64,000 nucleotides of DNA from positions 3,904,001 through 3,968,000 of the forward strand of contig OY730476.1 of assembly GCA_963422735.1 (NCBI GenBank), in the 5' to 3' direction. Both the position numbers and the translations under genes were made by a program. The notes beneath the pieces were generated by a model, which searched no databases, was not told the DNA's origin, and saw only the letters and a program-made list of their open reading frames with translations. This stretch comes from Candidatus Latescibacterota bacterium. GTDB taxonomy: Bacteria; Latescibacterota; UBA2968; UBA8231. Positions 44,165 to 60,232 of this stretch are shown here, piece after piece (position 1 is the stretch's first letter; the number at the start of each line of letters is the position of its first letter).

Positions 44165-44443
44165 GTTGCATTAGGGCAGGAACGCCAACAGACGCTCGCG
44201 GTGTGCCCGGACTTTCTACCTTTATTCACCACAAGCCCGCTACCGAGTCGCGGTGAAGCGTTCGGGTCGTGACGTTTGCATAGGTGCGGCCCAAATCGGC
44301 ATCTAGCGTGGAAATATCGGCGAAACGTCCAAAAAGGTTGTCTTGCCAGACGCATTCGGCCCAACGAGGACGTGAAAAGGGCGCAGCGGCCTATGTACAT
44401 ACCGCAAACAGCGATAATTCAAGGCTTCAACTCGCGTTATCAT
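44161..44443 (-). pseudogene. AAA/ABC-type ATPase N-terminal stub
   Basis: Manual translation MITRVEALNYRCLRYVHRPLRPFHVLVGPNASGKTTFLDV, then breaks. Confidence 0.72.
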
Positions 44444-44604
44444 CAGTCGGCTCCATCTGCGTTGTCTGTCATAGGGCTATTCATAAACCAAATTTTACTT
44501 TGCGGAATTCTTCTAAGACTAGACGCGAGAAAACGCTCAGCAATTATAGCGCAGCATCGCTCTTTAGTCCGCATCTTCTCCGACGCCACAGTAAGCCACT
44601 CACC

Positions 44605-45339
44605 CTACTGAAACAACTGCGTCGTCGGCTTGATCACCAAGAGGGGTACGCAGGCGCGGGGCGGCAGCGAGGCGACGAAGAGCGCGGCTTGGGCTAGCTC
44701 TTCGGGTTGCAACATGGCGGCCCGGCGTTGGGCACTGACGGGTTCGGGCCGCTGGGCCAAAATCGGCGTCTCTACCTCGCCGGGACAAATCGCGCAGGCG
44801 CGGATGCCGGACGCGACTTCCTCCTCGTTGATCGAGTTGGTTAGAGCCACCGCCCCGTGCTTGGAGGCTGAGTACGCGGCACCGGCCAGCTTGCTGGCCC
44901 GCAGGCCGGCGATGGACGAAATCGTGATGATGAGACCGTCGTTTTTTTGCCGCATCCCAGGCAGCACCGCCCGCACCATGTTGTACACCCCGGTGAGATT
45001 GATGGCAATGGTCTGGTCCCAGTCCTCGGGTGCCACTGCGCCGACCGCACGCGGATTGGTGTTGATGCCGGCGTTGTTGACTAGTACATCGACAGCACCC
45101 CACTCGGCCTTGACAGCCGATGCTAGGGCTTCGACAGCGCGGCGGTCGGATACGTCGCAGGAGTAGAGCAAAATCCGATCGGCATCGAGGCCAGCGGCCG
45201 CGGCAGCGAGCGGCTCAGGACGTCGGCCAACAAACGCCACCCGCGCTCCTGCGTCAGCAAAATCGCGCGCTATGGCCGCGCCGATCCCAGTGCCCGCGCC
45301 GGTGACTACAACGACGTTATCGGCGAATTGCTGCATCAT
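44605..45339 (-). CDS. SDR family oxidoreductase
   Basis: [17 protein letters not shown]. Confidence 0.92.
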
Positions 45340-46805
45340 TCCGCTCCCTTTTTGAGTGCTTGCAAGTGCTGGGCTTCCTCGCGCTGCTTGTAAAACGAGT
45401 CGAGGGGAAAGCAGCCGGAAATCATGCCGTTGCGTGGCGCGGTCGTGCAATCGGAAAACGTGCGGCAGATGAGGCGGCGTTGCAGTTGGCCGGTTTGCAA
45501 CACGTCGCAGGGCAGGTCGGGATAGGACAAAACCATCCGCCCCAAGCCGATAAAATCTACCATGCTCGCCCGCACGAGAGCTTGCCCCACGTGTGGCAGA
45601 TACTCCTGCAAGTAGGAATAACCCGACCCGACGAACAGACTGCGCGGGAAGCGCGCCTTGAGCCGGGCGACCACTTCTACTTGCCGCGCCACCCCGCACA
45701 GCGGGTCTTCCGGTGGCAGGTATCCATCGGAAGGGGGAAAGAGCGCTGGCCGCTGGATGTGCGGATTATAGTAAGGGCTGCCACAGGACAGGTTAAACAG
45801 CTCCACGCCCAAGCTTTCCAACGAGGCGATGAACTGCTCGGCCTCGCCTAAGTCAAGTTGCCGAGGATCGGCCTGATTGACCCCAAAGCCGTACTCGTAG
45901 GGCAGGCAGCTTTGGTGCGGCTCGGGCACCCCATGCCCGGGCTTGCCGTCGATACTCGCGTCTGGATCGGGCCGGAAGGGCACCAAGTCGAAGGCACTCA
46001 GCCGTACGCCGATGCCGAGGCCGGGTGCTCGGTTGCGGATCCCCTCGATGATGGAGCGGACAAAGCGCGTGCGATTTGTAAAAGAGCCGCCAAAAGGGCC
46101 GGGCCGCGTAAATGCGCTGAGGAATTCGTGCCCTAGGTAGCCGTGGCAATGCTTGATATCCACGAAGTGGTAGCCCAACTCATGGGCGATTTGTGCGCTA
46201 GTAACATAGCGGTCGATCAACTCCTCGATATAGGCGTCCGTCAAGAGCGGATGGTCCGCGGCAAGGCCGAATTTGCAATCCAAGATCGGGTGGTGATAGA
46301 GAATGGCTGGCGCGGCTCGATCCTTGCAATAGGGCCGGCAAAACCGCCCCGAATGCGTTAGTTGCAGCCCGAGGAGCAGGTCGTCGGTGGTGCCGAATCG
46401 CTCGCGGTGCGCCGACAGGAGGATGTCGCGCAGCTCGGCCATGCCGGCGCGGTTTTCTTGGCGCGCCATGAGCTGGTTCGGGTTGGCGCGGCCCTCGGGC
46501 ACCACGGCAAACGCCTCCCCGCCCCAGATGAGCTTGGCCCCGCTGCGCCCGAAATTCCGCCAGCGTCGGCGCGTCAAGTCGCTGGGCTGGCCGTCCTTAG
46601 TCCCATCCCACCCTTCCATCGGCTGAATGGCAAAGCGGTTGCCGATGCGGATGTCGCCGCTGCGGGCCGCTTGGGCCAGCGGGGATGTGGGGGCGGTTGC
46701 TATCTGGTCGTCGCAGGGCAATTCCGCACCTAAACGGGCCAGATGGGCGCGGAAATCCGCCGCCTGCTTAAAGCTAGAGATGCGCGGATAACGCACCTTG
46801 GCCAT
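45336..46805 (-). CDS. NADH:flavin oxidoreductase (old yellow enzyme family)
   Basis: [49 protein letters not shown]. Confidence 0.9.
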
Positions 46806-47557
46806 TAAGGGGCCTCCCGGCGTTGCAGATACAGCATCAGCCCCAAGCCGAAGGCGATCATGGCGATGCTGAGGAGTTGGGCTTGGCTCAGGTCCCACAG
46901 CACACGCGGGTTGATTCGAATGAATTCCACCAAGAACCGCGCCAGCCCGGCGAGGATGAGATAGAGGCTGAACAACAGGCCCGAAGTTGCGACGTGGGTC
47001 CGTCTCCTCCACAGGAAGGCAGCGATCCCCAAGTGCGCGAGGGTTTCGTACACTGGCGCGGGATGGACCTTTTCAAGGGTCGGCACCACCCCGTTGGGAT
47101 AGGCCATGCCCCAGGGAAGATCCGTCGGCACCCCGTAGTCGCCATCGCCGGCGAGTTGGCAGCCGATTCGCCCGATCCCGTAGCCCACGGCAAGGGCAAT
47201 GCCCATCGAGTCGGCGACTTGGCCCAGCGGCGCACTGTGGCGGCGAATTTGCCAAAGTGCGCCAGCGGCGGCGACGACAAATCCCCCGTACCAAGTCAAG
47301 CCGTAGCCGGAAAACAGTAGGTCGAACACGTCGCCCCAAGTCTCAGGAGACGTTTCAAATATCACAAAGTAGAGCTTGGCACCGACTAGCCCGCCGATCA
47401 TACAGGTGGTGACAATCGTCGATCCCAGCTCTTCGTGTAGCCCTTGGCGCTTGAACTCGCGGTTGAGCACATGCAGGGCCGTTAGGAAACCGAGGGCGAC
47501 CATGAGGCCAAACGTGCCAATGTTAATGGGACCGATCTCGAATAGGTAGGGATACAT
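46805..47557 (-). CDS. lgt: Prolipoprotein diacylglyceryl transferase
   Basis: [36 protein letters not shown]. Confidence 0.92.
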
Positions 47558-47559
47558 AA

Positions 47560-50500
47560 TCAGATATTTTTGCGGCCCAGAGCCTCGATCTGTCGCTTAA
47601 GTGCCGCGGCGATCTCGTAGTAAATCTCATAGGGGCTCAACGTCTCGGTGCATCCCTTAAAAGAGATAGTTTCCAAGGGAGGGCCAAAGAGCAGGCGCAA
47701 GGGGTGGCGCGCTGGTTTGCGCGTCCCCTTGGGCAAGGCTTCGCGGGTGCCGGCAATGTGCAGGGGCACTACGGGCGCGTCCAGCTCGTAGGCCAAAAGC
47801 CCCACGCCCGCCTTAAACGACTGTAGCTGGCTGCTGACCGAGCACGTGCCTTCGGGAAAGACCAGCAGCGGGCGGCGTACCCCCACCGATTGCCGCGCCC
47901 GTACCAAGCCTGCGGCAAAGTCGCCGTGGCCGTTGAAAGGGACGGCGTTGACAAAGGTGTACAAAAACCAGCGCAGCTCGGAGTCGGCAAGGTAATGCTC
48001 GCTGGTTGCGATATTGAGGTGGTCCACGTGGGAGCGCACGGCCGCGTACACGCAAGCACCGTCGAGATGGCTGGCGTGGTTGGCGGCAATCAGGTATGGC
48101 CGATCTTGCGGCAAGTGCTCTAGGCCACCGGCCCGGAGGTCGAAAAAGCGGCGGAACAAAGGGCCGCCGGTCTCCCACAGGATTTCCTGCAGCATCTTTT
48201 TGCCGGCCTCGCTTTCTGGCTCGGCACTCGGCTCGGCGTACAAAATGCCCGACCAGTACGCGGGCGACCGCTCCACCTCCCAGTCCACCCCGTCGCGCAA
48301 GTGATCCTCTATCTGTGCCAAGACGCTGCGGAGCGTGCTCTGTGTACGCAAAAACCCATCGACTTGGGTCCCCAGCCGCTGGCCGAGCCACGCGGCGAAC
48401 TCCACCGCCATCAGCGAATCCAGCAAGGTATCGAGTGGCGCGTCTATATGAGCCGCTACTTCTCCGGTGCTCAGACCAGCGAGCAGGCCGATTTGGCGCT
48501 GGATCGCCCGCTCCCATTCCGGCAGGGCTGTGCCCGGGCAGTCTTCGCTCTCGATGGCGGACAACAGGGCTTGGCGGTCCACGGTGCCGTCGTCTAGCCT
48601 CGGCAGCGGTCGGGTCCAAAAGTGCAGGCACTGGATCCGGTGATGGCTGGGCAAGGTGCGCGAAATCTCGTAGGCCTCGCGCAGGGCCTCGGCTTCCTCG
48701 GCGTTGCGGTTGAGCACGGCCACGCCGCGCACTTCTTCATCCCCAGTGCGAGCCGAGGGCACGCCGACTACGCTCAGCTCGGCCACATGCGGCAAGCCGT
48801 AGTAGAGCGATTCAACTTCGCGTAGATAGGCGTTGTGGTCAGCCCCATTGACGAGCAGGTCTTTGCTCCGCCCTTCGACGAAGAGATATCCTTCGTCGTC
48901 GAGGCAACCAAGGTCGCCGGTATGTAACCACCCGTCGCGCAACACCGCTTGGGTTAGCTCCTCTTGGGAGAAGTATCCCTTCATGACGTTGGCACCTTGC
49001 ACCAAAACCTCGCCGACGCCGCGCTCGTCCGGCTCGGCGATCTGCACTTGCTGCCCAGGCAGCACCTGTCCCACCGACCGGGCTTTGTCCTGCTTGGGCG
49101 CGTTGACCGCCACGATTGAGGCCGCTTCGCTCAGTCCATATCCTTGACAAATCGTCACGCCGAGACGCTCATAAGCGCCGATGAGGTCGTCAGACAGAGC
49201 CGCGCCGATGCTGACGACCCGCCTCAGAGCGGCTAGCGCAGCCGTAGCTCTGGCCCCGAGGTGCTCGATGCGGTCGGCCAAGACGCGCAACAGGCGCGGC
49301 GCGGTCAACAGCACGGTCGTATCCGTATCGCGCAGGGCTCGGAGTATCTCGCGGCTGTTGACAGCCTCTAAATACGTGATGGTGGCCCCGCCGACCAGTG
49401 GCAGCAGCAAGCCGCCGGTGAATTCGAGAGCTTGGTGCAGAGGCAGAGTCGAGAGCATGCGGTCGGATTCGTAGATGCGCAGCACCTCGCCTTGGGCGAG
49501 GACGTTGGAAATGAGATTGCGATGACTCAACACCACTCCGCGCGACTCGATGACCGAGGTAAAGATGATCGACGCCGTGGCGTCTGGCTCGACTCGCGGC
49601 GGCTTCCAAGGGCCTTCTCCGACGGACGCGGCTGACTCGGGAGCGCACCCGAACGGCAGACCGTCGCGATCTAAATTAAAAAAGGCCATCTCCTTGTGGG
49701 CTGCCACGCCCTCGGGTGAGAGCTGGGAAAAGCACTTTTCCGCTGCAATCAACGCCTTCGCTTGGACAAAGTCACACAGCCTCCAGATGTCTTCCTCGTG
49801 CGTCTGCGGGTCGATGGGCACGACTGCTAGCCCGTGCAGGCTGGCCGCCATGTAGGCGACGACCCACTCCGGCCCGTTGTCCCCGCATAGCAGGACCCGT
49901 GTACCAGCCGACATGCCCTGTGCTTGCCAACTGCGTGCCACGCGCTCGGCGCGGGTGATCAACTCACCGTAGCTGATCCGCGTCCAGCCGGCTCGGCGCT
50001 CGATTTGCAAGGCCGTTCTGGCGGCGTAGCGGCCGCAGGCCCAGCGCAACAGGTCCGGGATAGTGCGGATGCTTTCCTCGATGCGCCAGCGCTGCTCTTC
50101 GCCCCCCACTTCGCCCGGTGCCGCGCTCAACGGCTCTTGGTCGTCGGCCCCGCCTAGCTCGTGGCTCCGGAGGCCGGGTAGGTGGGTCTTTTGATAATAT
50201 TGATACCAGTCGATCCGCCGTACGTCCATGTTGAATATCCGCTGCTCTTCGGGGGGCAGCGACTCGTAAAGGGCCAACATGCGCTTGGTTTCATAACGGC
50301 AATCGAGGGTCGTGTACGGGCTGAACAGGTCGGTGAAGTACTGGACGCGCTTGAGCCGCGTCTTGAGCGCGGCCAAGCGGCGCTTCTTCTGGGCCGGTGC
50401 CCAACGCTCGGGCAGGTATTCGTAGAGCTTTTGCTTTATCTCTAGAGGATAGAGGTACTTCCAGTTGAAGACGCGCTGGAAGCGGGCTACCGTCGGGAAG

Positions 50501-51738
50501 GTCCAATCCACTAGCTCGGGCCGCGAGCCGTCCTTGTTGAGGAGGGGGTGCTCCTCAAAATAGCCTTTGACGTACTTGAACATCCGGGTGTTGGGTAGCG
50601 GGTTTTCTTCGCTGGTCGCCGCGTGGAAGACTTCCACGGTGGAGGCCGTGGCCTGCGCGGCTGCGGTCAGCACGGTATTGACGACGATGTCCACAGGTAC
50701 CAAGTCCATGGGTGCGCCGATTGCGGCTGGGAAGTCCGGGACGATCCCCCGCCCGTAGGCCACCACTAGCGGATCGGTCACTTTAAGCCCGTGTATCCAG
50801 CCTGGATGCGGGTCTTCGAGCGCACCTTCGGTGACGCTGGGCCGCACGATGGCCAGCGGCACTTGGCCGCGGTGCTTGACGAGTAGTTGTTCGCCCATGG
50901 CCTTGGTAAAAGTGTACACGTCATTCCAGCCATGCTGCCGCGCTCGGCGCATCCCTTCCTCGACCAGCTTGCGCTCGATCCAGCGGCGACAGCGGTCGTC
51001 AATCAGCTTTTGCAAGCGGCTGTCCGAGAGTGTGCGGCGGTGGCTCTGCTCGACGATCTCGCGGCGGAATGCTTGCTGTTGCTCGGTGCTTTGCGCTTGG
51101 GCACGGATTGTTTGGCAGAGGGCTTGCGCTTGGGCGATCTCTTCTTCGGGGACGAAAGGTTGTGGAGGCGTGCTGCCGTCGATTAGGTGCTGAATGGTGC
51201 GATCGACCGGCAGTACTCGCTCGGGGACGGCACCGGTGAGGCGCCCGTTGACGTACGCGGTTGATACGTGTACTAAGATGGGCTTTTTGCGGCCTTCGCG
51301 GGCCAGCCGCAAAAGCTCCTGAGGTGCCAAGGTGTTGAATTGGATCGCCGAGTCGAGCGGTTCGTCGAAGGTGACGCTGGCCGCGTTGCCGATGATGAGG
51401 TCAACTTCCGCAAGCAGCTCGTCGCGCGACACTTCGTCTAGCCCGAGGCCCGGCTGTCGCATGTCGCAGGCGAGGGCGCGCACCTTCTGTCGCGCCGCGG
51501 CAAAGGCGGCTGGTTCCTCTTGGCGGAAGCGGTCGAAGACGACCCGCTTGAAAAGCTCGTCCAGCCGCTCCTCTACCGGCAGTGCGGCCCCACCAGGACC
51601 CCGACCGGGCCGCAACACGAGGTACAAGCGCCGCACGCCGGGCAAATAGCGCAGGATCTTGGCCGTCAGCCCCTGCCCGTAAAACCCGGTGCCGCCGGTC
51701 AGCAATACGGTGCGGTCCTGATAGAATTCTCTAATCAT
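47560..51738 (-). CDS. ElbD-like multidomain enzyme: fatty acyl reductase - adenylation-like - ACP - acyltransferase
   Basis: TGGTGFYG, HVSTAYV, YTFTK (FAR); YGLSE, TGDLG, GRSKD (AMP-binding); LDSLMAVE (ACP Ser); NHASHLD, FPEGT (PlsC-type). Confidence 0.88.
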   Translation of the reverse strand: MIREFYQDRTVLLTGGTGFYGQGLTAKILRYLPGVRRLYLVLRPGRGPGGAALPVEERLDELFKRVVFDRFRQEEPAAFAAARQKVRALACDMRQPGLGLDEVSRDELLAEVDLIIGNAASVTFDEPLDSAIQFNTLAPQELLRLAREGRKKPILVHVSTAYVNGRLTGAVPERVLPVDRTIQHLIDGSTPPQPFVPEEEIAQAQALCQTIRAQAQSTEQQQAFRREIVEQSHRRTLSDSRLQKLIDDRCRRWIERKLVEEGMRRARQHGWNDVYTFTKAMGEQLLVKHRGQVPLAIVRPSVTEGALEDPHPGWIHGLKVTDPLVVAYGRGIVPDFPAAIGAPMDLVPVDIVVNTVLTAAAQATASTVEVFHAATSEENPLPNTRMFKYVKGYFEEHPLLNKDGSRPELVDWTFPTVARFQRVFNWKYLYPLEIKQKLYEYLPERWAPAQKKRRLAALKTRLKRVQYFTDLFSPYTTLDCRYETKRMLALYESLPPEEQRIFNMDVRRIDWYQYYQKTHLPGLRSHELGGADDQEPLSAAPGEVGGEEQRWRIEESIRTIPDLLRWACGRYAARTALQIERRAGWTRISYGELITRAERVARSWQAQGMSAGTRVLLCGDNGPEWVVAYMAASLHGLAVVPIDPQTHEEDIWRLCDFVQAKALIAAEKCFSQLSPEGVAAHKEMAFFNLDRDGLPFGCAPESAASVGEGPWKPPRVEPDATASIIFTSVIESRGVVLSHRNLISNVLAQGEVLRIYESDRMLSTLPLHQALEFTGGLLLPLVGGATITYLEAVNSREILRALRDTDTTVLLTAPRLLRVLADRIEHLGARATAALAALRRVVSIGAALSDDLIGAYERLGVTICQGYGLSEAASIVAVNAPKQDKARSVGQVLPGQQVQIAEPDERGVGEVLVQGANVMKGYFSQEELTQAVLRDGWLHTGDLGCLDDEGYLFVEGRSKDLLVNGADHNAYLREVESLYYGLPHVAELSVVGVPSARTGDEEVRGVAVLNRNAEEAEALREAYEISRTLPSHHRIQCLHFWTRPLPRLDDGTVDRQALLSAIESEDCPGTALPEWERAIQRQIGLLAGLSTGEVAAHIDAPLDTLLDSLMAVEFAAWLGQRLGTQVDGFLRTQSTLRSVLAQIEDHLRDGVDWEVERSPAYWSGILYAEPSAEPESEAGKKMLQEILWETGGPLFRRFFDLRAGGLEHLPQDRPYLIAANHASHLDGACVYAAVRSHVDHLNIATSEHYLADSELRWFLYTFVNAVPFNGHGDFAAGLVRARQSVGVRRPLLVFPEGTCSVSSQLQSFKAGVGLLAYELDAPVVPLHIAGTREALPKGTRKPARHPLRLLFGPPLETISFKGCTETLSPYEIYYEIAAALKRQIEALGRKNI

Positions 51739-51764
51739 AGCGGAATGCCCTGCCACAAGGAGGC

Positions 51765-51911
51765 TCACTGCGCGGGACGCTTAGGATCGCGACCCTTGCC
51801 GCCGCACCGATTCCGGTCTAGCCCTTGCTTTGTGATATAGGGGTGTTCGACCTGTTTTTCCAGTTCGCGGCGCTTGTCGGCCCACTCGATGTCCCGTTTT
51901 CGCTTGGCCAT
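51765..51911 (-). CDS. Small basic protein, 48 aa (below ORF-track cutoff)
   Basis: MAKRKRDIEWADKRRELEKQVEHPYITKQGLDRNRCGGKGRDPKRPAQ*, directly upstream of and co-oriented with the ElbD-like gene. Confidence 0.5.
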   Translation of the reverse strand: MAKRKRDIEWADKRRELEKQVEHPYITKQGLDRNRCGGKGRDPKRPAQ

Positions 51912-51977
51912 GTTTTGATGTTATCTTTGTATCAAGGTTAATCTACGCGCAAGGCCGCTCATAAGACAACCCAAGCT

Positions 51978-52883
51978 ATGTCCAAACACTGGGTCTTGAT
52001 AGCCAATCCAACGGCGGGCAGTACCCGCGCCCGCAGCTTCGCCGAGCAGGCCGCCCTGGCCCTGCAAGCTGCCGGCCAAGCGGTCGAATTGCACTACACG
52101 CGGGCCAAGGGCCACGCAGCCGAGCTGGCGCAGCAGGCCGTGGCCGAGGGTGCTGAGCGGCTCGTGGTCTGCGGCGGCGACGGCACGATCAGCGAGACGC
52201 TCGCACCCCTCGCTGGCTCGCACGCGGCCTTGGGGCTGCTACCCTGCGGCACGTGCAACGACTTGGCCCGCGCCCTCGCCGTGCCGCTCCGGGTGGAAGC
52301 GGCCATAGGCAACCTGCTCCACGGCAGGGTGCGCGCCATAGACTTGGGGCGGGCCGACGACCGCTTCTTCGCCACAATCGCCGCCTTTGGCTTTGACGCC
52401 GAAGTCAACCGTCGCATGGAAAGCGTCCAAGGGCCTCTGTCCGGGCGGGTCCGCTATATCCTGGAAGCATTGCGGCACGTCGCTTGCTATCAGCCGGCTC
52501 GGGTTCGCCTCTGCGGCGATTTCGGGGAGATTGAGCAAGAGGTGCTGCAAGTATCTACCGCCAATGCGCGGAACTATGGGGGCAATTTGTGCGTTGCCCC
52601 AGATGCCGACCTCGGCGATGGCCTCTTCGACGTGGTCGTCGTCGATGCGGTGCCGCGGCGGGCGATCCTGTCGCTGATGCTCCGCCTTTTTTGGCAAGGA
52701 CACATCCGCCATCCAGCCGTGCGCTTGATGCGCACGGCCCGCCTAGTGCTGCACACCGATGCGCCGCACAGCGTATATGCAGACGGCGACTACTTGGGCC
52801 AGACGCCACTCGTGCTGGAAATTAGCCCGGCCGCTCTGCAGGTGGTGGTGCCGAGTTCTTGCTCGCAGGGGGTGCGTTGCTGA
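51978..52883 (+). CDS. Diacylglycerol/lipid kinase family protein (YegS/DagK)
   Basis: ANPTAG, GGDGTISE, PCGTCNDLA, YGG, DGLFDV, ADGD. Confidence 0.92.
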   Translation: MSKHWVLIANPTAGSTRARSFAEQAALALQAAGQAVELHYTRAKGHAAELAQQAVAEGAERLVVCGGDGTISETLAPLAGSHAALGLLPCGTCNDLARALAVPLRVEAAIGNLLHGRVRAIDLGRADDRFFATIAAFGFDAEVNRRMESVQGPLSGRVRYILEALRHVACYQPARVRLCGDFGEIEQEVLQVSTANARNYGGNLCVAPDADLGDGLFDVVVVDAVPRRAILSLMLRLFWQGHIRHPAVRLMRTARLVLHTDAPHSVYADGDYLGQTPLVLEISPAALQVVVPSSCSQGVRC

Positions 52884-52886
52884 TGT

Positions 52887-52979
52887 TAGTGGCCAGTGGC
52901 CAGTGGCCAGTGACCAGTGGTCAGTGGTCCGTCCTCGCACGGCACCCTAGGGGAGAGGGACAGGCCACTAACCACAGGC
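52887..52979. repeat. Inverted heptamer-array element
   Basis: TAGTGGC(CAGTGGC)2CAGTGAC(CAGTGGT)2, core, then ACAGGCCACTAACCACAGGC. Confidence 0.8.
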
Positions 52980-53330
52980 GTCTTTGTGAACTACCTGCCC
53001 TGCGAGTGAGGATGACATGCTTGAGACACCCTTCGGGAGTAGGTCGATGCAAGCGAATAGAAACTTGGCCAACATGCTGCACATACAGGCACTTGTCTTG
53101 CAGCTTGCACCCGTCGCCATGTCGGTATTCGAGAGACCGAAAGCGATTGGCCCCCTTGAATCGCGGGAAGCCCGGGGTGTCTCCGGCTCTCAGACGACGA
53201 AAAAAGGCTCGGAATGCCTTATCCAAGCGACGGAGTATTTGCTGCATACTAGTTGCATTGAGCAGGCCAAAATCCTCAAGATGCAGACGATATTGGCGAG
53301 TGCGCTGCATGTCTTACACGCCCTTTTGTT
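52980..53330 (-). mobile_element. tnpB: IS200/IS605 family tnpB fragment
   Basis: QQILRRLDKAFRAFFRR...PGFPRFKGANRFRSLEY; RuvC and zinc finger absent. Confidence 0.8.
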
Positions 53331-53444
53331 CAGTAATATACCGCTCAATCGTTTTTGTCTATACACGACCTATACTAGCGACAAAATAACTGCGGGACCA
53401 CGAGGTAGAAAGACGGTCAAGACGGCAGTGCCCCGCTGAGTACT

Positions 53445-54422
53445 ATGGCTACCCGAGCACAGCAAATACGCCTGGGCATCTTCTTCTTGGTTTCTCTCGC
53501 CGTTCTCGCGCTCTTCTTCATCGTCGTCGCTGGCAGCCATATCCTGCGCCAGCGCGATACCTATTACATCGAGTCCAACTCGCCCGTCAGCGGCCTCAAC
53601 AAAGGCGCGGACGTCAAGTACTTGGGCTTTAGCATTGGCCGAGTCGAGGGCATCGCAATCGCACAGGATCATCTCTCTACGGTAGTAGTCGAGATTTCGG
53701 TTGAGAGGCGGCTGGCCGAAAACGCCATCCGCACCGACGCGCAAGCGCGAATGGCCTCGCTGGGGATCACCGGCCTGAAGTTCATTGAGCTTTTTGGGGG
53801 CAGCGACGACGCCCCGCCCCTCCCTCCGGGGTCCACAATTGTCGCGGACGAGACCTTTTTTAGCAGCATGCAAGAGCGCGCCGAAGTGCTCAGTGCCAAG
53901 GTTGAACAGACCATCGACAACCTAAACGCGCTGCTCAGCAGCGAAAACCAGCGCGTCTTCACCGAGTTGCTGAGCAACGCGGGCAACCTGCTGGCGACGG
54001 CCAACGCGCTGGTTGAGGACAACCGCTCTGCATTCGACGAGGCGGCGGCCAATATGGTCGCCACCAGTCGCTCGCTCGCCAAAACCAGCGCGACGTTGGC
54101 GGCGACGGCCGATTCCCTGCACATCTTGCTCGTGGGCGAGAAGCTGCAACAGACGGTTGACGATCTGCAAGTGACGATGCACAAGTTGCGCCAGCAAATG
54201 GACGGTCCGGTTCCCCTGCTCGTCGCACGGATGGACACCGTGATAAGCCATATCGACCAGACCTTTGTGGGCATCGACCAGACCGTAGGGGCTAGCCGAC
54301 AGAATCTCTTGCGCGCCATGCAGGAACTGGAGGAAACTTTGCAGAATATCCGCGAAACCACCGAACTAATCCGCGAGAACCCCGCGGTGCTCATCCGAGG
54401 TCGCAGTGGTGCGACCCAATAA
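53445..54422 (+). CDS. mlaD: MCE/MlaD family protein with long helical C-terminus
   Basis: N-terminal TM, VSGLNKGADVKYLGFSIGRV, GITGLKFIEL, ENPAVLIRG. Confidence 0.9.
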   Translation: MATRAQQIRLGIFFLVSLAVLALFFIVVAGSHILRQRDTYYIESNSPVSGLNKGADVKYLGFSIGRVEGIAIAQDHLSTVVVEISVERRLAENAIRTDAQARMASLGITGLKFIELFGGSDDAPPLPPGSTIVADETFFSSMQERAEVLSAKVEQTIDNLNALLSSENQRVFTELLSNAGNLLATANALVEDNRSAFDEAAANMVATSRSLAKTSATLAATADSLHILLVGEKLQQTVDDLQVTMHKLRQQMDGPVPLLVARMDTVISHIDQTFVGIDQTVGASRQNLLRAMQELEETLQNIRETTELIRENPAVLIRGRSGATQ

Positions 54423-55164
54423 CCGAGTGCGCCGCTGCGGTCAGGTCCTCGTCTTGGTCATAGCGCTAGCCGGCTGCGCCCAGTTGCTAGGCGGCGAAAC
54501 CAAGCTGCCGCAACGGCGCTATTTCAAGTTGCCTATCGAACCCTTGCGCGGTAGTGTGGAAGATTCCGAGCGCCCGTACCCTTTCCAAGTGCAGGTCAAG
54601 GGCTTTGAGGTGCCCCGAGCGTATGACCGCACCCACATCATCCGCCGCCGCGACCAGTACGAGCTGCAGCGCGACAACCTCCACCACTGGATGGAGCGGC
54701 CCGGCGACATGATCACCGACGCGGTCAAGCAGTACTTGCGCCAAGCCGACCTCTTTACCTATATCGGCGGGGATCGCGATTTTTTCGAGCACCGTCCGGA
54801 TTACGTGTTCAGCGGCTCGATCAAAGCCATTGAGCGCTTCGACAGCGGCGATCTGTGGGCGGCCCATCTCGTTATGACGATGAAACTAGTGAGGCAAGCC
54901 GATGGCAAGGTTATATGGCAGGACGATTTCGACGAGGAGAAACAGGTTTTCTCCCCGGCCGTGAAATACACGGTGGCCGCGTTGAGCGGGATTTTGGGCC
55001 AGCGGATGAAAAAGGCGATCGGAGAGATCGACTTCAAGTTCAGCAACAAGCAGCGGCCCGCGCCCATCGCGTCCGACGCGGAAGCTGCACCAGCGGCCCG
55101 AGATACAGTGCTGCAGACCGAAGCCGATCACTACGAGCTCATACCGGGGAAGCTGGTCCCCTAG
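54406..55164 (+). CDS. ABC-type transport auxiliary lipoprotein (PqiC-like)
   Basis: LAGC lipobox, RYF.L, WMERPGDMI, PDYVFSGSI. Confidence 0.8.
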   Translation: MVRPNNRVRRCGQVLVLVIALAGCAQLLGGETKLPQRRYFKLPIEPLRGSVEDSERPYPFQVQVKGFEVPRAYDRTHIIRRRDQYELQRDNLHHWMERPGDMITDAVKQYLRQADLFTYIGGDRDFFEHRPDYVFSGSIKAIERFDSGDLWAAHLVMTMKLVRQADGKVIWQDDFDEEKQVFSPAVKYTVAALSGILGQRMKKAIGEIDFKFSNKQRPAPIASDAEAAPAARDTVLQTEADHYELIPGKLVP

Positions 55165-55172
55165 GACTTGGC

Positions 55173-56675
55173 ATGTACAAGCTGCTCTATATCCTGATCG
55201 CCCTACCGTTGCTCGCCGGCCCCGCTGCGGGCAACAGCTATACTTGGGTCGCCCCACCTGGGCGCGGCCAACTCGAACAGGATCCAACCCTGATTCCCAA
55301 GGGCAAGGGCTTTCTCTTCGTGCCGACGATGACCGGCTCCCTCAACGAGCCCAGTTTCCTCGTCTTACAGGGCAACAGACCTATCCGCGAAGCCTCCCCC
55401 GGCACCGGCGTGTTGCTCTCGCCCGGCAACTACAAATTGCTGGTCGGCTCGGGCGCGGACATCCAGATGATGAGCCGCACCGTGCCAATCCAAGAGGGCA
55501 TGACGACCTTGATAAAGCCCTTCTGGGCCGGACTAGTCATCAACGTCATATCCGAGAACCGCGCATCGATCAACGAATCCTATGAACTGTACCGGGAGTC
55601 CTCTCAGGAAAACTACGGCCTCGGCTTCGGCCTCGAGGAGGAGCGAGGCGAGGCGGTCAAAACTTGGCTTCTGCCCCCAGGCGTTTACTCGGTAGTGCAA
55701 GTCGGCGACAATGTATCAACCACCCGCAAGTTCAGCGTCCGTTTAGAGCCGGGCGAGTTGGTCCAGCGCAATCTAGTAGTGGACACCAGCGACGATACCT
55801 TCATCGGCTTCTACCCCCCGACTCAACAGGGTTTTCTCACCCAAGTAGCTGACTCGCGCTGGAAGACCTCCTTGCAGCTAAGCGGCTCACCCCGGCTGTC
55901 CACCTCGCAGAATACCACCGGCGCAGATCGCTCGGTCCTCTTGCTCTCCGCTGAGGTCATCGGCAGCAGCGTCTATAACACGGACCGCCACTACGCCAAT
56001 CTGCGGTTGGACTTTGAAGAGGGCTTCACCCGCGAGGAGGGCGACGACTTCCGCAAGTTCATCGACAAGTTCGAGGTCCGCGCTACGTATATCTATCGGC
56101 TTTCCAAGCGGATCGGCCCCTATTTGCGCGGGGTGTTCAACACCAAGCTATTCGCCACTGAGGACCGCTTCGACCAGCCGCGCAATCTTCTGATCCGCGA
56201 TGGCGAGATCGAGGGCATGATGGGCATTAGCGAATTTATCCTCTCTCCGCCCTTCAGCCCCCTTGAACTGCGCCAAGGCATTGGCATCAACTCCCAGGTC
56301 ATCAGCAGCTTTCCCCTGAACCTCGACATGCGCGTTGGTTTTGGGGCACGTCAAAGCTATGTTACCGATACCTATGACCTAAACTCCTCCCGCACCATCG
56401 CCGACAAGTTGCAGGACAAGACCGCCACCGGCTTGGAGGCCGTGCTGCTCCTCCGGTCGCGTTTCTCGCGCTTCCCCAGCTTGGATTCGGAGTTTGACAT
56501 CCTAATCCCGGAGACGGCCACCGACACTTGGGAGTTCACTTGGGAAAACCGCTTGCGCTTGCCGCTTAGTCGCTTCATCAACATGGTCGTCGTCTTCGAT
56601 TTCGAGCGCAAGCTGCCGGTCCAGCGGCTGCAATCTATGCAACAGGTCCTGCTGCGCCTCAACTATTTGCTATGA
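55173..56675 (+). CDS. Secreted protein, probable outer-membrane beta-barrel with N-terminal beta-sandwich domains
   Basis: Signal peptide; alternating amphipathic strands in the C-terminal half; ends LLRLNYLL; lies within the MCE operon. Confidence 0.65.
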   Translation: MYKLLYILIALPLLAGPAAGNSYTWVAPPGRGQLEQDPTLIPKGKGFLFVPTMTGSLNEPSFLVLQGNRPIREASPGTGVLLSPGNYKLLVGSGADIQMMSRTVPIQEGMTTLIKPFWAGLVINVISENRASINESYELYRESSQENYGLGFGLEEERGEAVKTWLLPPGVYSVVQVGDNVSTTRKFSVRLEPGELVQRNLVVDTSDDTFIGFYPPTQQGFLTQVADSRWKTSLQLSGSPRLSTSQNTTGADRSVLLLSAEVIGSSVYNTDRHYANLRLDFEEGFTREEGDDFRKFIDKFEVRATYIYRLSKRIGPYLRGVFNTKLFATEDRFDQPRNLLIRDGEIEGMMGISEFILSPPFSPLELRQGIGINSQVISSFPLNLDMRVGFGARQSYVTDTYDLNSSRTIADKLQDKTATGLEAVLLLRSRFSRFPSLDSEFDILIPETATDTWEFTWENRLRLPLSRFINMVVVFDFERKLPVQRLQSMQQVLLRLNYLL

Positions 56676-57763
56676 CGTGGGTGCAGAGCGACGGCTTGGG
56701 GATCGCGCTCGGTGGCGCGCTTTCGCTACGCACCATCGGTGCCCTCGCTCCCCAGGCCCGCGCACTCATCGCCGAGCATCCGCGTTCCGCGCTCCGCGCC
56801 GACTTGCGCCAAGTCGAACACCTCGACATCGCAGGGGCCGTTTTCCTGCGCGGATTATCCGACCTCGCCCTCTCCTTGGACAAGGAACTCCGCCTCGCCG
56901 AGCTGCCGGCCCATTTGCAGCCTGTCTTCGACTTTGCCACGCCCGCGCCGCCCGCGCCGCCCGCGCTGCGCCTCGCCGCCCTTGAACGCCTCGGCGCTTG
57001 GGTGCGTGCTCAAGGCGTCTGCGCTGCCGATTTTCTCTATCTGATGGCCGACCTGAGCGTTTTCTCGGTCCTATCCCTATTCCGCCGCGATCAGATTCGC
57101 CGGGGCAGTTTTGGCGAGCAAGCGTACGCGATTGGTGCGCAGGCCCTGCAGATCGTCGGGTTGATTCTCTTTCTCGTCGGCGCGGTTTCGGCTCTCCAGT
57201 CGGCAGCTCAACTCCGCCAGTTCGGGGCCGATATTTTCGTCGCCAACCTGCTGGGGATTGGCCTGACCCGCGAGTTGGGGCCGCTGATGACCGCGATCAT
57301 GGTATCTGGCCGCTCTGGGTCGGCCATTGCCGCCGAGATCGCCACCATGAAGTTCACCGAGGAGTTGGACGCCCTGCAGACTATGGGAATCGACCCGCTG
57401 CGCTTTGTGGTCGTGCCCAAGCTGTGGGCCATGATCGTCTGCATGCCGCTTTTGACGATCATGGCCAACTTCGTTGGCATCCTCGGAGGCACCTTCATCG
57501 GCTTGGTGTCGCTGGACATCCCGGCTACTGTGTTTCTCAACCAGGTCTTCTCGTCGCTCTTTCTCAAGGACTTGCTCACCGGGCTGGTCAAAAGCGCGTC
57601 CTTTGCGTGGCTTATCGCGATCATCTCGGTTCATCACGGCCTCAATTTCAGCGGCGGAGCCGAGGGTGTCGGCCGGGCGACGACCTCGGCGGTCGTGTCT
57701 TCGCTGTTTGGCATCATTGTCCTCGACGCCTTCTGGGGTATTGTCTTCTACCTCAAATGGTGA
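56672..57763 (+). CDS. mlaE: MlaE-family permease with N-terminal STAS domain
   Basis: DLRQVEHLDIAG STAS; RELGPLMTAIMVSGRSGSAIAAEIATMK..EELDAL; GVGRATT. Confidence 0.92.
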   Translation: MTWVQSDGLGIALGGALSLRTIGALAPQARALIAEHPRSALRADLRQVEHLDIAGAVFLRGLSDLALSLDKELRLAELPAHLQPVFDFATPAPPAPPALRLAALERLGAWVRAQGVCAADFLYLMADLSVFSVLSLFRRDQIRRGSFGEQAYAIGAQALQIVGLILFLVGAVSALQSAAQLRQFGADIFVANLLGIGLTRELGPLMTAIMVSGRSGSAIAAEIATMKFTEELDALQTMGIDPLRFVVVPKLWAMIVCMPLLTIMANFVGILGGTFIGLVSLDIPATVFLNQVFSSLFLKDLLTGLVKSASFAWLIAIISVHHGLNFSGGAEGVGRATTSAVVSSLFGIIVLDAFWGIVFYLKW

Positions 57764-58503
57764 CTCGCGCCATCGACATCCAAAACCTCTGCGTGTCCTA
57801 CGGCGAGACGGCCGTCCTAAGCGGGATTGACGCGTACATAGAAGAAGGGGAAATCGCCGTTGTGCTCGGCGGCAGCGGCTGCGGCAAGAGTACCTTGCTC
57901 AAGGCGATCATCGGCTTGGTGCAACCCGCCTCAGGCCGCGTCGAAATCCTCGGTCAAGACGCGACGGCCCTCGACGACGAGGAGCTGGCGGCCCTGCGCA
58001 AGCGGCTGGGTGTCATGTTTCAATACGGTGCTTTGCTCAACTCGTTGACGATTGAGCAAAACGTCGCCCTGCCCTTGGAAATGCACACGGACCTAGAGCC
58101 GGCCCTGATTGGGGAGATCGTGCGCACCCGCCTCGCCTTGGTGGGCTTAGGGCACGCCTGCGACCGCTACCCCAGCGAGCTATCGGGCGGGATGCGCAAA
58201 CGCGCCGCCCTCGCGCGGGCCATGGTCATGGACCCAGAGATTCTCTTCTGCGACGAGCCGGGCGCGGGCCTCGACCCGGTCACCGCCGCCGAGATCGACG
58301 CGCTCCTCCTCGCGCTCAACCGCGAATTGGGCATCACCATCGCTATTATTACCCACGAGTTACTTAGCATCGAGCGGCTCGACGGTCGCCTCATCATGCT
58401 CGACCAAGGCCGCGTGGCATTTACCGGCACGGTCGCCGGGGCCAAGCGAGCGCAGCACCCGGTGGTCCGCTCTTTCTTTTACCCGTCCGATTCGTCCGCA
58501 TGA
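57757..58503 (+). CDS. mlaF: MlaF-family ABC ATPase
   Basis: GGSGCGKS, FQYGAL, LSGGMRKRAALARA, CDEP.AGLDP. Confidence 0.92.
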   Translation: MVTRAIDIQNLCVSYGETAVLSGIDAYIEEGEIAVVLGGSGCGKSTLLKAIIGLVQPASGRVEILGQDATALDDEELAALRKRLGVMFQYGALLNSLTIEQNVALPLEMHTDLEPALIGEIVRTRLALVGLGHACDRYPSELSGGMRKRAALARAMVMDPEILFCDEPGAGLDPVTAAEIDALLLALNRELGITIAIITHELLSIERLDGRLIMLDQGRVAFTGTVAGAKRAQHPVVRSFFYPSDSSA

Positions 58504-58976
58504 AAACCATCCTCATCGCCGCCCTGAGCGAGAACAGGGTCATTGGCCGCGCCAACGCCATCCCGTGGCACTACCCGGCCGACATGAAGCACTTCGTCCG
58601 CGTCACTCGGGAGCACGCGGTCGTGGCCGGTCGCAAAACCTACGAGACCTTTCAGACGCGCCCCTTGCCCCGGCGCCTCAACTTCGTCCTCACCCGCAAT
58701 TCAGACTACGCGGTCGCAGAGGGCGCGGTTGTCTGCACGAGCTTGGCCGAGGTGTTGCAGCGTGCCCGCGCCCACGGCAGCGAAAAACTCTTCGTGCTCG
58801 GAGGGGCCCAAGTCTATGTGCAGGCCCTGCCCTTGGCCGACGAAATGATCCTGACGCACTTGCCCATCCAAGTCGAGGGCGACGCGTTCTTTCCGAGGTG
58901 GGACGAAGGCGAGTGGGAGGTGGTAGAAAGGCGCTGCACAGGCGAGTTGGTTTTTGCCACCTATCGCCGCCGTTGA
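58500..58976 (+). CDS. folA: Dihydrofolate reductase
   Basis: ENRVIG...IPWHYPADMKHF, GRKTYE, PLPRRLN, GGAQVY, GDAFFP. Confidence 0.93.
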   Translation: MKTILIAALSENRVIGRANAIPWHYPADMKHFVRVTREHAVVAGRKTYETFQTRPLPRRLNFVLTRNSDYAVAEGAVVCTSLAEVLQRARAHGSEKLFVLGGAQVYVQALPLADEMILTHLPIQVEGDAFFPRWDEGEWEVVERRCTGELVFATYRRR

Positions 58977-59026
58977 GGAGGCCTACCCGCATTGATCGAT
59001 AGCTAACCAAAAGAGGACATAAAACC

Positions 59027-60232
59027 ATGAGTAAGAGAAGGCAGATCATGTTTCAACAGTTAGAAATGGCGCCGGCGGACCCCATCTTGGGGCTGAGCGC
59101 GGCGTTCAAGAGCGACGCGAATCCAAACAAAATCAACCTCAGCGTTGGCGTCTATCGGGATGCGAGCGGCCAGACGCCGGTTTTGGCTTCAGTGCAAACG
59201 GCGCAAGAGCGCGTCTTGGCTGCGGAAAAGACCAAGAGCTATTTGAGCATTGAGGGCAGCCCGGAATACGGCACTGCCGTGCGGGAGCTAATTTTGGGCG
59301 TTGGGCACGAAGCGGCCAAACGCGCCATCACCGTGCAAAGCCCCGGCGGCACTGGAGCCTTGCGCCTAGCGGGCGATTTCCTCGCCCAGCACCTAGGCAA
59401 CCGGTCCGTGTGGATAAGCGACCCGACTTGGGCCAATCATCCCAAGGTCTTTGCCGCAGCCGGCCTACAAGTCGAGACCTATTCCTATTTTGACGCCCGT
59501 GCCAACAGCCTCGATGCCGACGCCTTACTCGCCGCGCTCGGGCAAATTCCCTCTGGCCACGTGGTGCTGTTGCACGGCTGTTGCCACAACCCCACCGGCT
59601 GCGACCCCACCCCGGACACTTGGCGGCAGATCGCTGAGGTCGTTGCCGAGCGCGGCCTGTTGCCCTTAGTCGATTTTGCCTATCAGGGATTCGGCGATGG
59701 GTTGTGCGAGGACGCGGCTGGCCTGCTGGCACTCTGCGACGCGGGCTGCGAGCTACTCGTGGCTAGCTCCTTTTCCAAAAACTTCAGCCTGTACAACGAG
59801 CGCGTCGGTGCCCTGACTTTGATCGCCGCGGACGCCGAGGCCGCGCTCAGGGCCTTGAGCCATCTCAAAATCGCAGCGCGCACCAGCTACTCCAATCCCC
59901 CGGCCCACGGCGCGGCCATTGTCAGTGAAATCCTCGGCGACTCGGTGCTTTGCCGCCAATGGGAAGGCGAATTGGCCCAGATGCGCGAGCGAATCAACCG
60001 CGTGCGCCAACGGCTCGTCGCTCGGCTCAGCGAGCAGGGCGTAGGGCGCGACTTTTCGTTTATTGAGCGGCAGCGAGGGATGTTCTCTTTCTCGGGCTTG
60101 AACGCCGAGCAGGTCGAGGTGCTGCGGGAACAGTACGCGATCTACATCGTAGCGGGAGGGCGCATCAACGTCGCCGGCCTGACCGAAGACAACCTCGATT
60201 ACTTCTGCGCCTCGGTGGCCGCCGTCCTGTGA
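59027..60232 (+). CDS. aspC: Aspartate/aromatic amino acid aminotransferase
   Basis: APADPILGL, NLSVGVYRD, HGCCHNPTG, DFAYQGF, SFSKNFSLYNERVG. Confidence 0.92.
   Translation: MSKRRQIMFQQLEMAPADPILGLSAAFKSDANPNKINLSVGVYRDASGQTPVLASVQTAQERVLAAEKTKSYLSIEGSPEYGTAVRELILGVGHEAAKRAITVQSPGGTGALRLAGDFLAQHLGNRSVWISDPTWANHPKVFAAAGLQVETYSYFDARANSLDADALLAALGQIPSGHVVLLHGCCHNPTGCDPTPDTWRQIAEVVAERGLLPLVDFAYQGFGDGLCEDAAGLLALCDAGCELLVASSFSKNFSLYNERVGALTLIAADAEAALRALSHLKIAARTSYSNPPAHGAAIVSEILGDSVLCRQWEGELAQMRERINRVRQRLVARLSEQGVGRDFSFIERQRGMFSFSGLNAEQVEVLREQYAIYIVAGGRINVAGLTEDNLDYFCASVAAVL

Follow-up and report, generated by a model that had tools for sequence, protein, structure and literature searches.

A candidate envelope-lipid locus, specific to one family of Latescibacterota, in which an ElbD-like gene is joined to the only lgt of the genome

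Why does a gene with the domain architecture of Myxococcus ElbD lie directly upstream of lgt in a sponge-associated Latescibacterota bacterium, and does the arrangement mean that lipoproteins in this organism carry an ether-linked anchor? An earlier note on the window (the whole 64,000-nucleotide stretch of DNA that was analysed, to which all positions here refer) had proposed that the locus makes alkyl-glycerol lipids and that a dedicated Lgt attaches them to lipoproteins. We have followed up this proposal in the source genome, a single contig of 4.95 Mb that is 95% complete, and in its relatives.

The ORF map and domain searches located all the genes named in the note at its coordinates and in its order. 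On the minus strand the ElbD-architecture gene (47560-51738, 1392 aa) is followed, after the 2 nt that had been claimed, by lgt (46805-47557, 250 aa), an OYE-like flavoenzyme gene (45336-46805, 489 aa) and a classical, FabG-like SDR gene (44605-45339, 244 aa), recognised by its adh_short match. The full ORF of the first gene is 47560-51768; counted from the conserved ATG at 51738 its product has the claimed length, and relatives align from residue 8-11 onwards. The overlaps described among the next three genes are real where they are short, lgt and the OYE gene sharing 1 nt of stop and start in the junction TAATG and the OYE stop overlapping the SDR start by 4 nt in ATGA, whereas the longer ones arise from alternative upstream starts in the ORF list and are not real. 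Beyond an intergenic region (51739-51977), in which a consensus scan gave no sigma-70-like site, the opposite strand encodes in order a lipid kinase of the YegS type, MlaD, a PqiC-like lipoprotein, a probable barrel, STAS-MlaE and MlaF.

Pfam matches divide the product of the ElbD-architecture gene into a FAR region (NAD_binding_4 and Sterile), AMP-binding and AMP-binding_C, and Acyltransferase. The carrier domain, between the adenylation and acyltransferase regions, is represented by a PP-binding match that includes a conserved D-S-L serine and lies below threshold (E 0.0026; 18.4 bits, cut-off 20.8). The motifs by which such reductases and acyltransferases are defined, GxxGxxG, YxxxK, HX4D and FPEGT, are all present. 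The P-loop and the A10 lysine are regarded as essential in ANL enzymes; alignment to PDB structures shows the P-loop of this adenylation domain to be two residues shorter and to have no lysine, and another residue stands in place of the A10 lysine. A table of motifs in the relatives shows that these losses hold across the family. The FAR motifs are intact in every genome examined, while the catalytic His of the acyltransferase has gone in two of the four genera examined outside g1 (G055 in g4 and G110 in g6) and at least 16 genomes have lost the entire adenylation-carrier-acyltransferase module. Many relatives thus carry the module in decayed form or not at all, but retain FAR, lgt and the OYE gene.

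Myxobacteria need ElbD to make alkyl and vinyl ether lipids. The domain order of the window's gene is that given for Myxococcus xanthus ElbD, FAR-ACS-ACP-AGPAT, in the parts of a review consulted (PMC9131029), as the earlier note had stated. The likeness to ElbD of the elbABCDE operon (Lorenzen et al. 2014, via PMC9131029 and PMC13012113) is one of description, and both genomes also hold an AGPS gene elsewhere. The two genes differ in that the ACS activity of ElbD was demonstrated in vitro according to PMC9131029, whereas the adenylation motifs are degenerate here. They differ also in their partners: lgt, the OYE gene and the SDR gene lie downstream in the window, and domain searches found no elbB (HAD), elbC or elbE in the locus, in accord with the note. 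Nor did the queries used recover these partners elsewhere in the genome; the HAD of a phylum relative, G015, gave no match, hence no ElbB-like orthologue, and the LarA-like query from G015 gave only weak LarA-family matches, with no close ElbC-like orthologue. G015 itself carries the order ElbD-HAD-ADH-LarA_N-kinase. Because the adenylation motifs are degenerate and neither an ElbB-like HAD nor a close ElbC-like orthologue was found, the gene probably lacks the full function of ElbD.

The genome holds candidate genes for another source of ether lipids. The FAR domain of the ElbD-like gene is the sole FAR match in the genome, and an AGPS-SDR pair is located 830 kb from the locus. The AGPS orthologue is 63% identical to a relative's protein, which itself matches mammalian AGPS (PDB 4bby) at E 1e-151. 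A further gene elsewhere in the genome, X, encodes a candidate GNPAT; it has no significant Pfam domain and its resemblance to acyltransferases is weak (E 0.0013 to 0.12, below cut-off; atlas 0.79). Of the enzymes of the AGPS route, FAR and AGPS are thus clearly encoded, whereas the DHAP acyltransferase has X as its candidate and the alkyl-DHAP reductase the SDR gene beside AGPS. The aerobic AGPS pathway of eukaryotes and M. xanthus (MXAN_1676-1674) comprises FAR, GNPAT and AGPS (PMC13012113, consulted in part), and sister families carry a comparable operon, FAR-X-AGPS-SDR. The window's family differs in having its FAR gene out of the AGPS operon and upstream of lgt. Since the only FAR occurs together with an AGPS-SDR pair, the genome is likely, from its gene content, to have ether-lipid capacity via FAR and AGPS. 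The claim that the locus may make alkyl-glycerol lipids is therefore supported by the FAR and AGPS genes, but not by the adenylation domain of the ElbD-like gene, whose motifs are degenerate. The presence of elbD and agps in sponge Latescibacterota has been reported previously, matches to both in MAGs being given in the portion seen of a preprint (10.64898/2026.06.23.733905).

The proposal of a dedicated Lgt does not survive. The lgt product matches PF01790 over its full length (positions 1-240 of 240; 164.6 bits, cut-off 24.9), falling short of the NCBI equivalog cut-offs (TIGR00544, 97.7 against 118.9), and it is the single PF01790 match in the genome, alongside one Lsp and two Lnt, with which it makes up the lipoprotein pathway of the cell. 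As the only Lgt in the single contig, with no separate housekeeping copy, it is not a dedicated one. A tree places the FAR-linked Lgts in one clade (SH-aLRT 99) within a C146/D151 class that also includes the sole, FAR-unlinked Lgts of other families; the window's copy is that inherited vertically in its family rather than a dedicated paralogue.

Its residues lead to the same view. Six residues, Y26, H103, R143, N146, G154 and R239, are absolutely required in E. coli Lgt according to the part seen of PMC13251419, which also describes natural Lgts with N146C/E151D and with H103Y/W/F, and partial complementation of E. coli by the N146C Lgt of L. interrogans. The window's Lgt has N146C, E151D, H103Y and Y26F and keeps R143, G154, R239 and E243. 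Apart from Y26F, these features are shared with the Lgts of L. interrogans and M. smegmatis (MSMEG_5408) as given in that source, from which it differs in being the sole Lgt, as in most of the phylum sampled, in being short, and in its predicted operon with lipid-synthesis genes. The N146C/E151D/H103Y set is common to 21 of 32 aligned Latescibacterota Lgts and to all 34 distant representatives, most of them not FAR-linked; the N146C/E151D class is both already described and common in the phylum. Y26F is found in 10/10 aligned FAR-linked Lgts, while unlinked copies in sister families retain Y26; it also occurs in 15 of the 34 unrelated representatives. The enzyme thus looks, by its sequence, like an ordinary housekeeping Lgt and not one specialised for ether anchors.

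The flavoenzyme is encoded by a single-copy gene, conserved at 61-65% identity throughout the class, which in sister families adjoins mreC and not lipid genes. Old Yellow Enzymes are FMN TIM barrels with an H..H/N-G-Y active-site motif. The PF00724 match here is limited to positions 9-231 of 342; against OYEs in the PDB (E 3e-15) H-G-Y is aligned with the first His off by one position, and in length the protein exceeds typical OYEs by ~130 aa. The SDR gene directly follows it only in genera g1 and g7.

Among 29 related loci, 26 show the gene order of this locus, two are cut by contig ends and one has no lgt, a recurrence far beyond chance. The FAR/ElbD-lgt-OYE adjacency is found from listed coordinates in 52 of 64 family genomes; in the remainder it was inferred from gap size in three, five are cut by contig ends and four are exceptions. 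The synteny asked of ElbD and lgt is therefore kept through one family but is absent from sister families, where lgt, FAR and the OYE gene are far apart (0 of 25 single-contig genomes). The coupling itself, with the 2-nt gap, TAATG and ATGA, is maintained in 16 of 18 genera, including those with FAR-only forms, and such persistence could reflect a real functional link of FAR, Lgt and the flavoenzyme. In genus g3 the ElbD gene adjoins the Mla operon with no linked lgt or OYE gene, and a canonical Lgt is encoded elsewhere; in one genome FAR is followed directly by the OYE gene. The lipid kinase recurs close to ElbD/FAR in families f1, f2 and f14. Gene order alone weighs little within the family, because a functionally unrelated folA-aminotransferase pair beside mlaF is equally conserved in position.

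Of the divergent operon described in the note, the domain matches bear out the kinase, MCE, PqiC-like, MlaE and MlaF genes, and the barrel is probable. The kinase (51978-52883, plus strand, as are all that follow) is of the YegS/Rv2252/BmrU, DAG-like type, with DAGK_cat and YegS_C and TIGR00147 above cut-off. The MCE/MlaD-family protein (53445-54422; PF02470), the MlaE permease (56672-57763; PF02405, TIGR00056 above cut-off) with an N-terminal STAS domain (MlaB-like; STAS_2 below cut-off) and the MlaF-type ATPase (57757-58503; ABC_tran, PF00005, with its start codon) belong to one operon. The PqiC-like auxiliary lipoprotein (54406-55164; ABC_trans_aux, PF03886) has an N-terminal L-A-G-C lipobox and is therefore a predicted substrate of Lgt. 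The product of 55173-56675 has a signal peptide, a beta-sandwich and long beta-strands; its DUF3078 match is below cut-off, its look-alikes in the atlas belong to DUF3078/DUF481-bearing clusters (0.98-0.99), and AlphaFold predicts, with low confidence (pLDDT 58.6, pTM 0.37), an all-beta fold of long strands. It is probably an outer-membrane barrel. The system thus shares with the Mla and Pqi systems of diderms an MlaD-like MCE protein, MlaE, MlaF, a STAS domain and a PqiC-like lipoprotein, and differs from them in the fusion of STAS to MlaE and in having a ~500-aa probable outer-membrane beta protein within the operon; MlaC and MlaA were not recognised in the locus.

The genes present, their copy numbers, their motifs and their synteny are observed, and from these we infer every chemical step that follows. 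A somewhat probable explanation is that the two divergent operons form an envelope-lipid locus peculiar to this family of sponge-associated Latescibacterota. The translationally coupled minus-strand operon carries a FAR with a decaying adenylation-carrier-acyltransferase module, a single general-purpose Lgt, a class-wide OYE and an SDR. The FAR domain would reduce acyl thioesters to fatty alcohol, which AGPS-SDR and the GNPAT-like protein encoded elsewhere would convert to 1-O-alkyl-glycerol-3-phosphate by the myxobacterial and eukaryotic route; the neighbouring kinase may re-phosphorylate alkyl(acyl)glycerols and the Mla/MCE system may carry lipids across the envelope. Lgt would lipidate all lipoproteins from the phosphatidylglycerol pool, including the PqiC-like one encoded opposite, and its position would stem from envelope functions being expressed together, an arrangement fixed in one family, rather than from specialisation of the enzyme for ether anchors. 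The carrier and acyltransferase motifs of the window's copy are intact, and its module may therefore work without a canonical adenylation site.

A fully working ElbD, which would activate, carrier-load and reduce fatty acids to give alkyl-glycerol lipids independently of AGPS, as in Myxococcus, the OYE and SDR replacing ElbB, ElbC and ElbE, is suggested by the domain order, by the intact carrier serine, HX4D and FPEGT and by the translational coupling of the two downstream genes, the more so as the parts of PMC9131029 consulted give as unknown how the elb route forms the ether bond in Myxococcus. It is nevertheless unlikely, given the family-wide state of the P-loop and A10 position, the damage to the module in relatives that keep FAR, lgt and OYE, the lack of matches to ElbB-like and close ElbC-like genes, and an OYE that is class-wide and elsewhere sits next to mreC. 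A neutral gene order, with lgt, OYE and FAR joined once in the family ancestor without a common pathway and ElbD a remnant with no ether-lipid role, would account for the dispersal of these single-copy genes in sister families, for the decay of the module and for the equal stability of folA and the aminotransferase gene beside the Mla operon. We consider it distinctly improbable, however, when the FAR domain is intact in every genome examined and is the genome's only one, accompanied by a conserved AGPS, when the overlapping stop and start codons are retained across genera and when the kinase is near ElbD/FAR in three families.

The ether anchor itself is speculation for this lineage. In favour of an Lgt tuned to alkyl-acyl-phosphatidylglycerol made by its neighbours are FAR-lgt coupling across a family, Y26F in every aligned FAR-linked Lgt against Y26 in the unlinked sister copies, and a plausible ether-lipid pathway; a sole Lgt would modify every lipoprotein. 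Against this, a sole Lgt is not a dedicated one, Y26F recurs in unrelated representatives, lgt stands apart from FAR in the sister families, which carry FAR-AGPS operons as well, and the g3 loci and the FAR-OYE genome do without the linkage. The reading is thus very doubtful, and we have as little confidence in its fuller form, in which a largely alkyl-acyl PG pool is the reason for co-translation of Lgt, FAR and the flavoenzyme and every lipoprotein bears a 1-O-alkyl-2-acyl-glyceryl thioether anchor. A literature search found no report of an ether-linked lipoprotein anchor in bacteria.

Between the kinase and MCE genes the window carries a strain-specific insert of 561 nt (52884-53444), consisting of a heptamer repeat, which recurs in ~50 other places in the genome, and then a stretch of lower GC. 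Relatives have ~55 nt at this point and a contig from a relative's RNA library skips 52884-53444; the insert is outside the conserved locus.

The gene content and order of the locus, checked from open reading frames, junctions and domains, are as the earlier note had described. Four closely packed genes lie on the minus strand: a gene of ElbD architecture (47560–51738, 1392 aa counted from the conserved ATG); lgt (46805–47557), which starts 2 nt past the ElbD stop; an OYE-family gene (45336–46805), whose ATG has one base in common with the lgt stop; and a classical SDR (44605–45339) with a 4-nt overlap between its ATG and the OYE stop. The long gene overlaps originally reported were due to alternative upstream starts, and the true minus-strand overlaps are those of 1 nt and 4 nt. 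Pfam identified fatty-acyl reductase (FAR), AMP-binding and acyltransferase domains in the ElbD-like gene, with the carrier domain below threshold. The recognition of an ElbD domain order was thus correct, FAR–AMP-binding–carrier–acyltransferase being that of Myxococcus xanthus ElbD according to the accessible portion of the review PMC9131029. The plus strand encodes, in order, a YegS-type lipid kinase, an MCE/MlaD protein, a PqiC-like lipoprotein with the lipobox L-A-G-C, a protein of ~500 aa, STAS-MlaE, MlaF, FolA and an aminotransferase. The ~500-aa product is likely an outer-membrane beta protein: its DUF3078 score is under the cut-off, its atlas look-alikes score 0.98–0.99 and its AlphaFold model is all-beta, with a pLDDT of 58.6, a confidence too low for a fold search. 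The genome is a single contig of 4.95 Mb, 95% complete, of which the window spans positions 3,904,001–3,968,000, and its nearest public relatives are Latescibacterota MAGs.

We collected 31 loci, 29 of them from true relatives. In 26 of the 29, lgt is found directly 3′ of ElbD/FAR; two stop at a contig edge and in one FAR is followed by the OYE gene. Across the family's 64 genomes, the window's included, the listed coordinates show FAR/ElbD, lgt and OYE adjoining in 52. Three more have a gap of fitting size where the coordinates of lgt are unlisted, five are split by contig ends and four are exceptions. These are one genome with FAR next to OYE and lgt elsewhere, both genomes of genus g3, where ElbD adjoins the Mla operon without a linked lgt or OYE and the sole Lgt is canonical, and one g8 genome (84% complete) where neither FAR nor lgt nor OYE was found. 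At least 16 genomes have, next to lgt, a gene of ~540–560 aa that encodes FAR alone. In families f2 and f3, all 25 genomes carrying the three genes on one contig keep them distant (nearest pair 89 kb). In sister families, lgt is flanked by a DNA methyltransferase gene and cysS/hemB. The ElbD–lgt adjacency, whose conservation the earlier note had proposed to check, therefore holds within the family but in none of these 25 genomes, and the operon position of lgt is a family-level feature. As an internal control, folA and the class I/II aminotransferase gene (58500–60232), directly 3′ of mlaF, stay joined to the Mla operon just as stably across the family, so that conserved order in this family is weak evidence of a shared pathway. 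In the E. coli K-12 annotation lgt adjoins thyA, also folate-linked; the likeness to folA here is probably coincidence.

The coupling had been read as a dedicated Lgt giving lipoproteins an ether-linked anchor, with a second, housekeeping lgt to be looked for. A PF01790 search of the genome found one Lgt, the window's copy, which rules out a dedicated paralogue; with a single Lgt, the window's lgt must serve the entire lipoprotein pathway. The same genome has one Lsp and two Lnt. The two full-length Lnt homologues (G000:C1:4939681–4940826 and 879578–880765 of the window's genome) both score over the TIGR00546 cut-off, and one may be part of a fusion, as the open frame that holds it runs to 845 aa.

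Two further readings were rejected. One is that the 'true' housekeeping gene is the second lgt of relatives, an additional canonical N146 copy being present in nine of the 64 family genomes. Six of the nine were examined (L045–L048, L073 and L074, from G120, G121, G110, G147, G094 and G132); in the tree they cluster tightly on very short branches, spanning four genera. They are carried on a segment of ~6–8 kb with a DNA identity of 90–94% between these genera, whose resident loci gave no blastn match of 300 nt or more to the window. A segment so alike across genera with diverged resident loci rules this reading out. On these comparisons the extra copies seem to be recent transfers, and the FAR-linked copy is the resident one; the segment looks like a recently spread island with a spare lgt. 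The N146 copy of another relative, G144, has an in-frame TAA.

The other reading takes the odd residues of the window's Lgt as a mark of ether specialisation. Compared with E. coli Lgt, R143, G154, R239, E243 and R246 are kept, and the changes are Y26F, H103Y, N146C, E151D and W153Y. According to the text available of PMC13251419, E. coli Lgt cannot do without Y26, H103, R143, N146, G154 and R239; the paper also reports that distant natural Lgts bear N146C and E151D, with Y, W or F possible at H103, its examples being L. interrogans Lgt (partial complementation) and MSMEG_5408. Among the Lgts aligned, 21 of the 32 from Latescibacterota have C146, as do 34/34 distant 50%-cluster representatives; at E values up to 1e-30 the C146/D151 class counts 291 representatives. 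In a tree of 67 rows, the nine FAR/ElbD-linked Lgts of the family group as a single clade (SH-aLRT 99) within this class; the sole unlinked Lgts of f2 and of three other families (f8, f13 and f14) also belong to the class. The same residues are thus found in unlinked sole Lgts and in all the distant representatives, which rules out the specialisation reading, and the tree, a check named in the earlier note, goes against a dedicated enzyme. The window's lgt encodes an ordinary Lgt, the only one of its lineage. An Lgt of the N146C class can therefore be the only one of a diderm lineage, which bears on how the essential residues of Lgt are defined.

Ether-lipid genes were found away from the locus. 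The sister families have an operon of FAR, an unnamed protein X, AGPS and SDR, with the FAR gene first, and their AGPS-like protein matches mammalian alkyl-DHAP synthase (PDB 4bby) at E 1e-151. In the window's genome, the AGPS orthologue shares 63% identity and is followed at once by an SDR; the pair lies 830 kb from the locus. An X orthologue (47% identity) is encoded elsewhere, and the sole FAR of the genome is the N-terminal domain of the window's ElbD-like gene. X has 645–673 aa and no significant Pfam domain, and lies between FAR and AGPS in relatives' loci L041 (4801–6738), L042 (8170–10191) and L086 (6847–8787). The three X orthologues tested all gave acyltransferase signals that were weak and under threshold, and the atlas score was 0.79; this makes X a candidate bacterial DHAP acyltransferase, analogous to GNPAT, as a lead only. 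Against the set of FAR, GNPAT and AGPS known from Myxococcus and eukaryotes (PMC13012113, in the part accessible), the window's genome has FAR and AGPS, with X as a weak GNPAT-like candidate.

The domains of the ElbD-like protein differ in their state. The FAR motifs GxxGxxG and YxxxK are intact in 10/10 sequences compared. The P-loop of the adenylation domain is two residues shorter and lacks its lysine in the window's genus (g1), an arginine stands in place of that lysine in the family's other genera, and the A10 lysine is replaced in 8/8 family sequences. Both motifs are kept in a sister family's split A-ACP-AT gene, and the A10 lysine in a full-length ElbD of f14. The histidine of the acyltransferase HX4D motif is missing in two of the four non-g1 genera examined (G055 of g4 and G110 of g6); the window's own copy retains HX4D, FPEGT and the carrier serine. 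In the f14 relative, ElbD is followed by the usual elb partners, a HAD protein, a Zn-ADH, a LarA_N protein and a lipid kinase. Used as queries against the window's genome, these f14 proteins gave no HAD match and only weak LarA-family matches. In the locus itself no elb partner gene is present, as the earlier note had remarked. The reductase would thus be retained for the AGPS route, with the remainder of ElbD under relaxed constraint in the family, and ether lipids would most likely be made through FAR and AGPS rather than by the full ElbD route. The ether-lipid role put forward for the locus is plausible as a capacity.

Sponge symbionts have been suspected as the origin of the abundant ether lipids of sponges. 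The capacity of this lineage was largely anticipated in print: the portion available of 10.64898/2026.06.23.733905 reports "standalone elbD hits" with co-occurring agps in sponge Latescibacterota MAGs, and DAG kinases adjoining elbD in other phyla; lgt, lipoprotein and Mla do not occur in its main text. The locus together with the AGPS–SDR pair provides a concrete ether-lipid gene set for Latescibacterota and suggests that the working part of such a hit is a reductase feeding AGPS, the other domains decaying. The linkage of lgt does not demonstrate a novel type of lipoprotein anchor. In a literature search, no title or abstract opening among the matches listed described an ether-linked anchor on a bacterial lipoprotein, the nearest being archaeal. 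The boldest reading left, alkyl-acyl-glyceryl anchors on all lipoproteins of the family, is possible but speculative, and one Lgt, one FAR and one AGPS make a cheap test case for the passing of ether lipids to lipoproteins by Lgt.

The OYE-family protein (489 aa) is encoded by a single-copy gene with 61–65% identity across a whole class of Latescibacterota and is better conserved than Lgt or FAR; in the sister families its gene is convergent to mreC, which is uninformative as a functional clue. A promoter and terminator scan of 44300–53500 was likewise uninformative: it gave no promoter-like site, and its 9 terminator-like sites compare with an expectation of 8.4. Some stretches of ElbD, lgt, OYE, the lipid kinase and the Mla genes are covered by contigs of two metatranscriptome libraries and one library guessed to be RNA. 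The metatranscriptome contigs are 90–95% alike to the locus and so derive from relatives, and one contig (46669–46983) bridges the lgt/OYE junction. These contigs were not counted as evidence, since they do not establish that the genes share one transcript and may stem from carried-over DNA. The kinase is separated from mlaD by an insert of 561 nt (52884–53444); relatives lack it and have ~55 nt there, and a relative's RNA-library contig connects 52884 straight to 53444. The insert opens with a heptamer tandem repeat, the remainder being of lower GC, and its minus strand may read as a fragment of an IS605-type TnpB. Look-alikes of the heptamer repeat are found at ~50 other sites in the genome, one of them just upstream of the AGPS gene.
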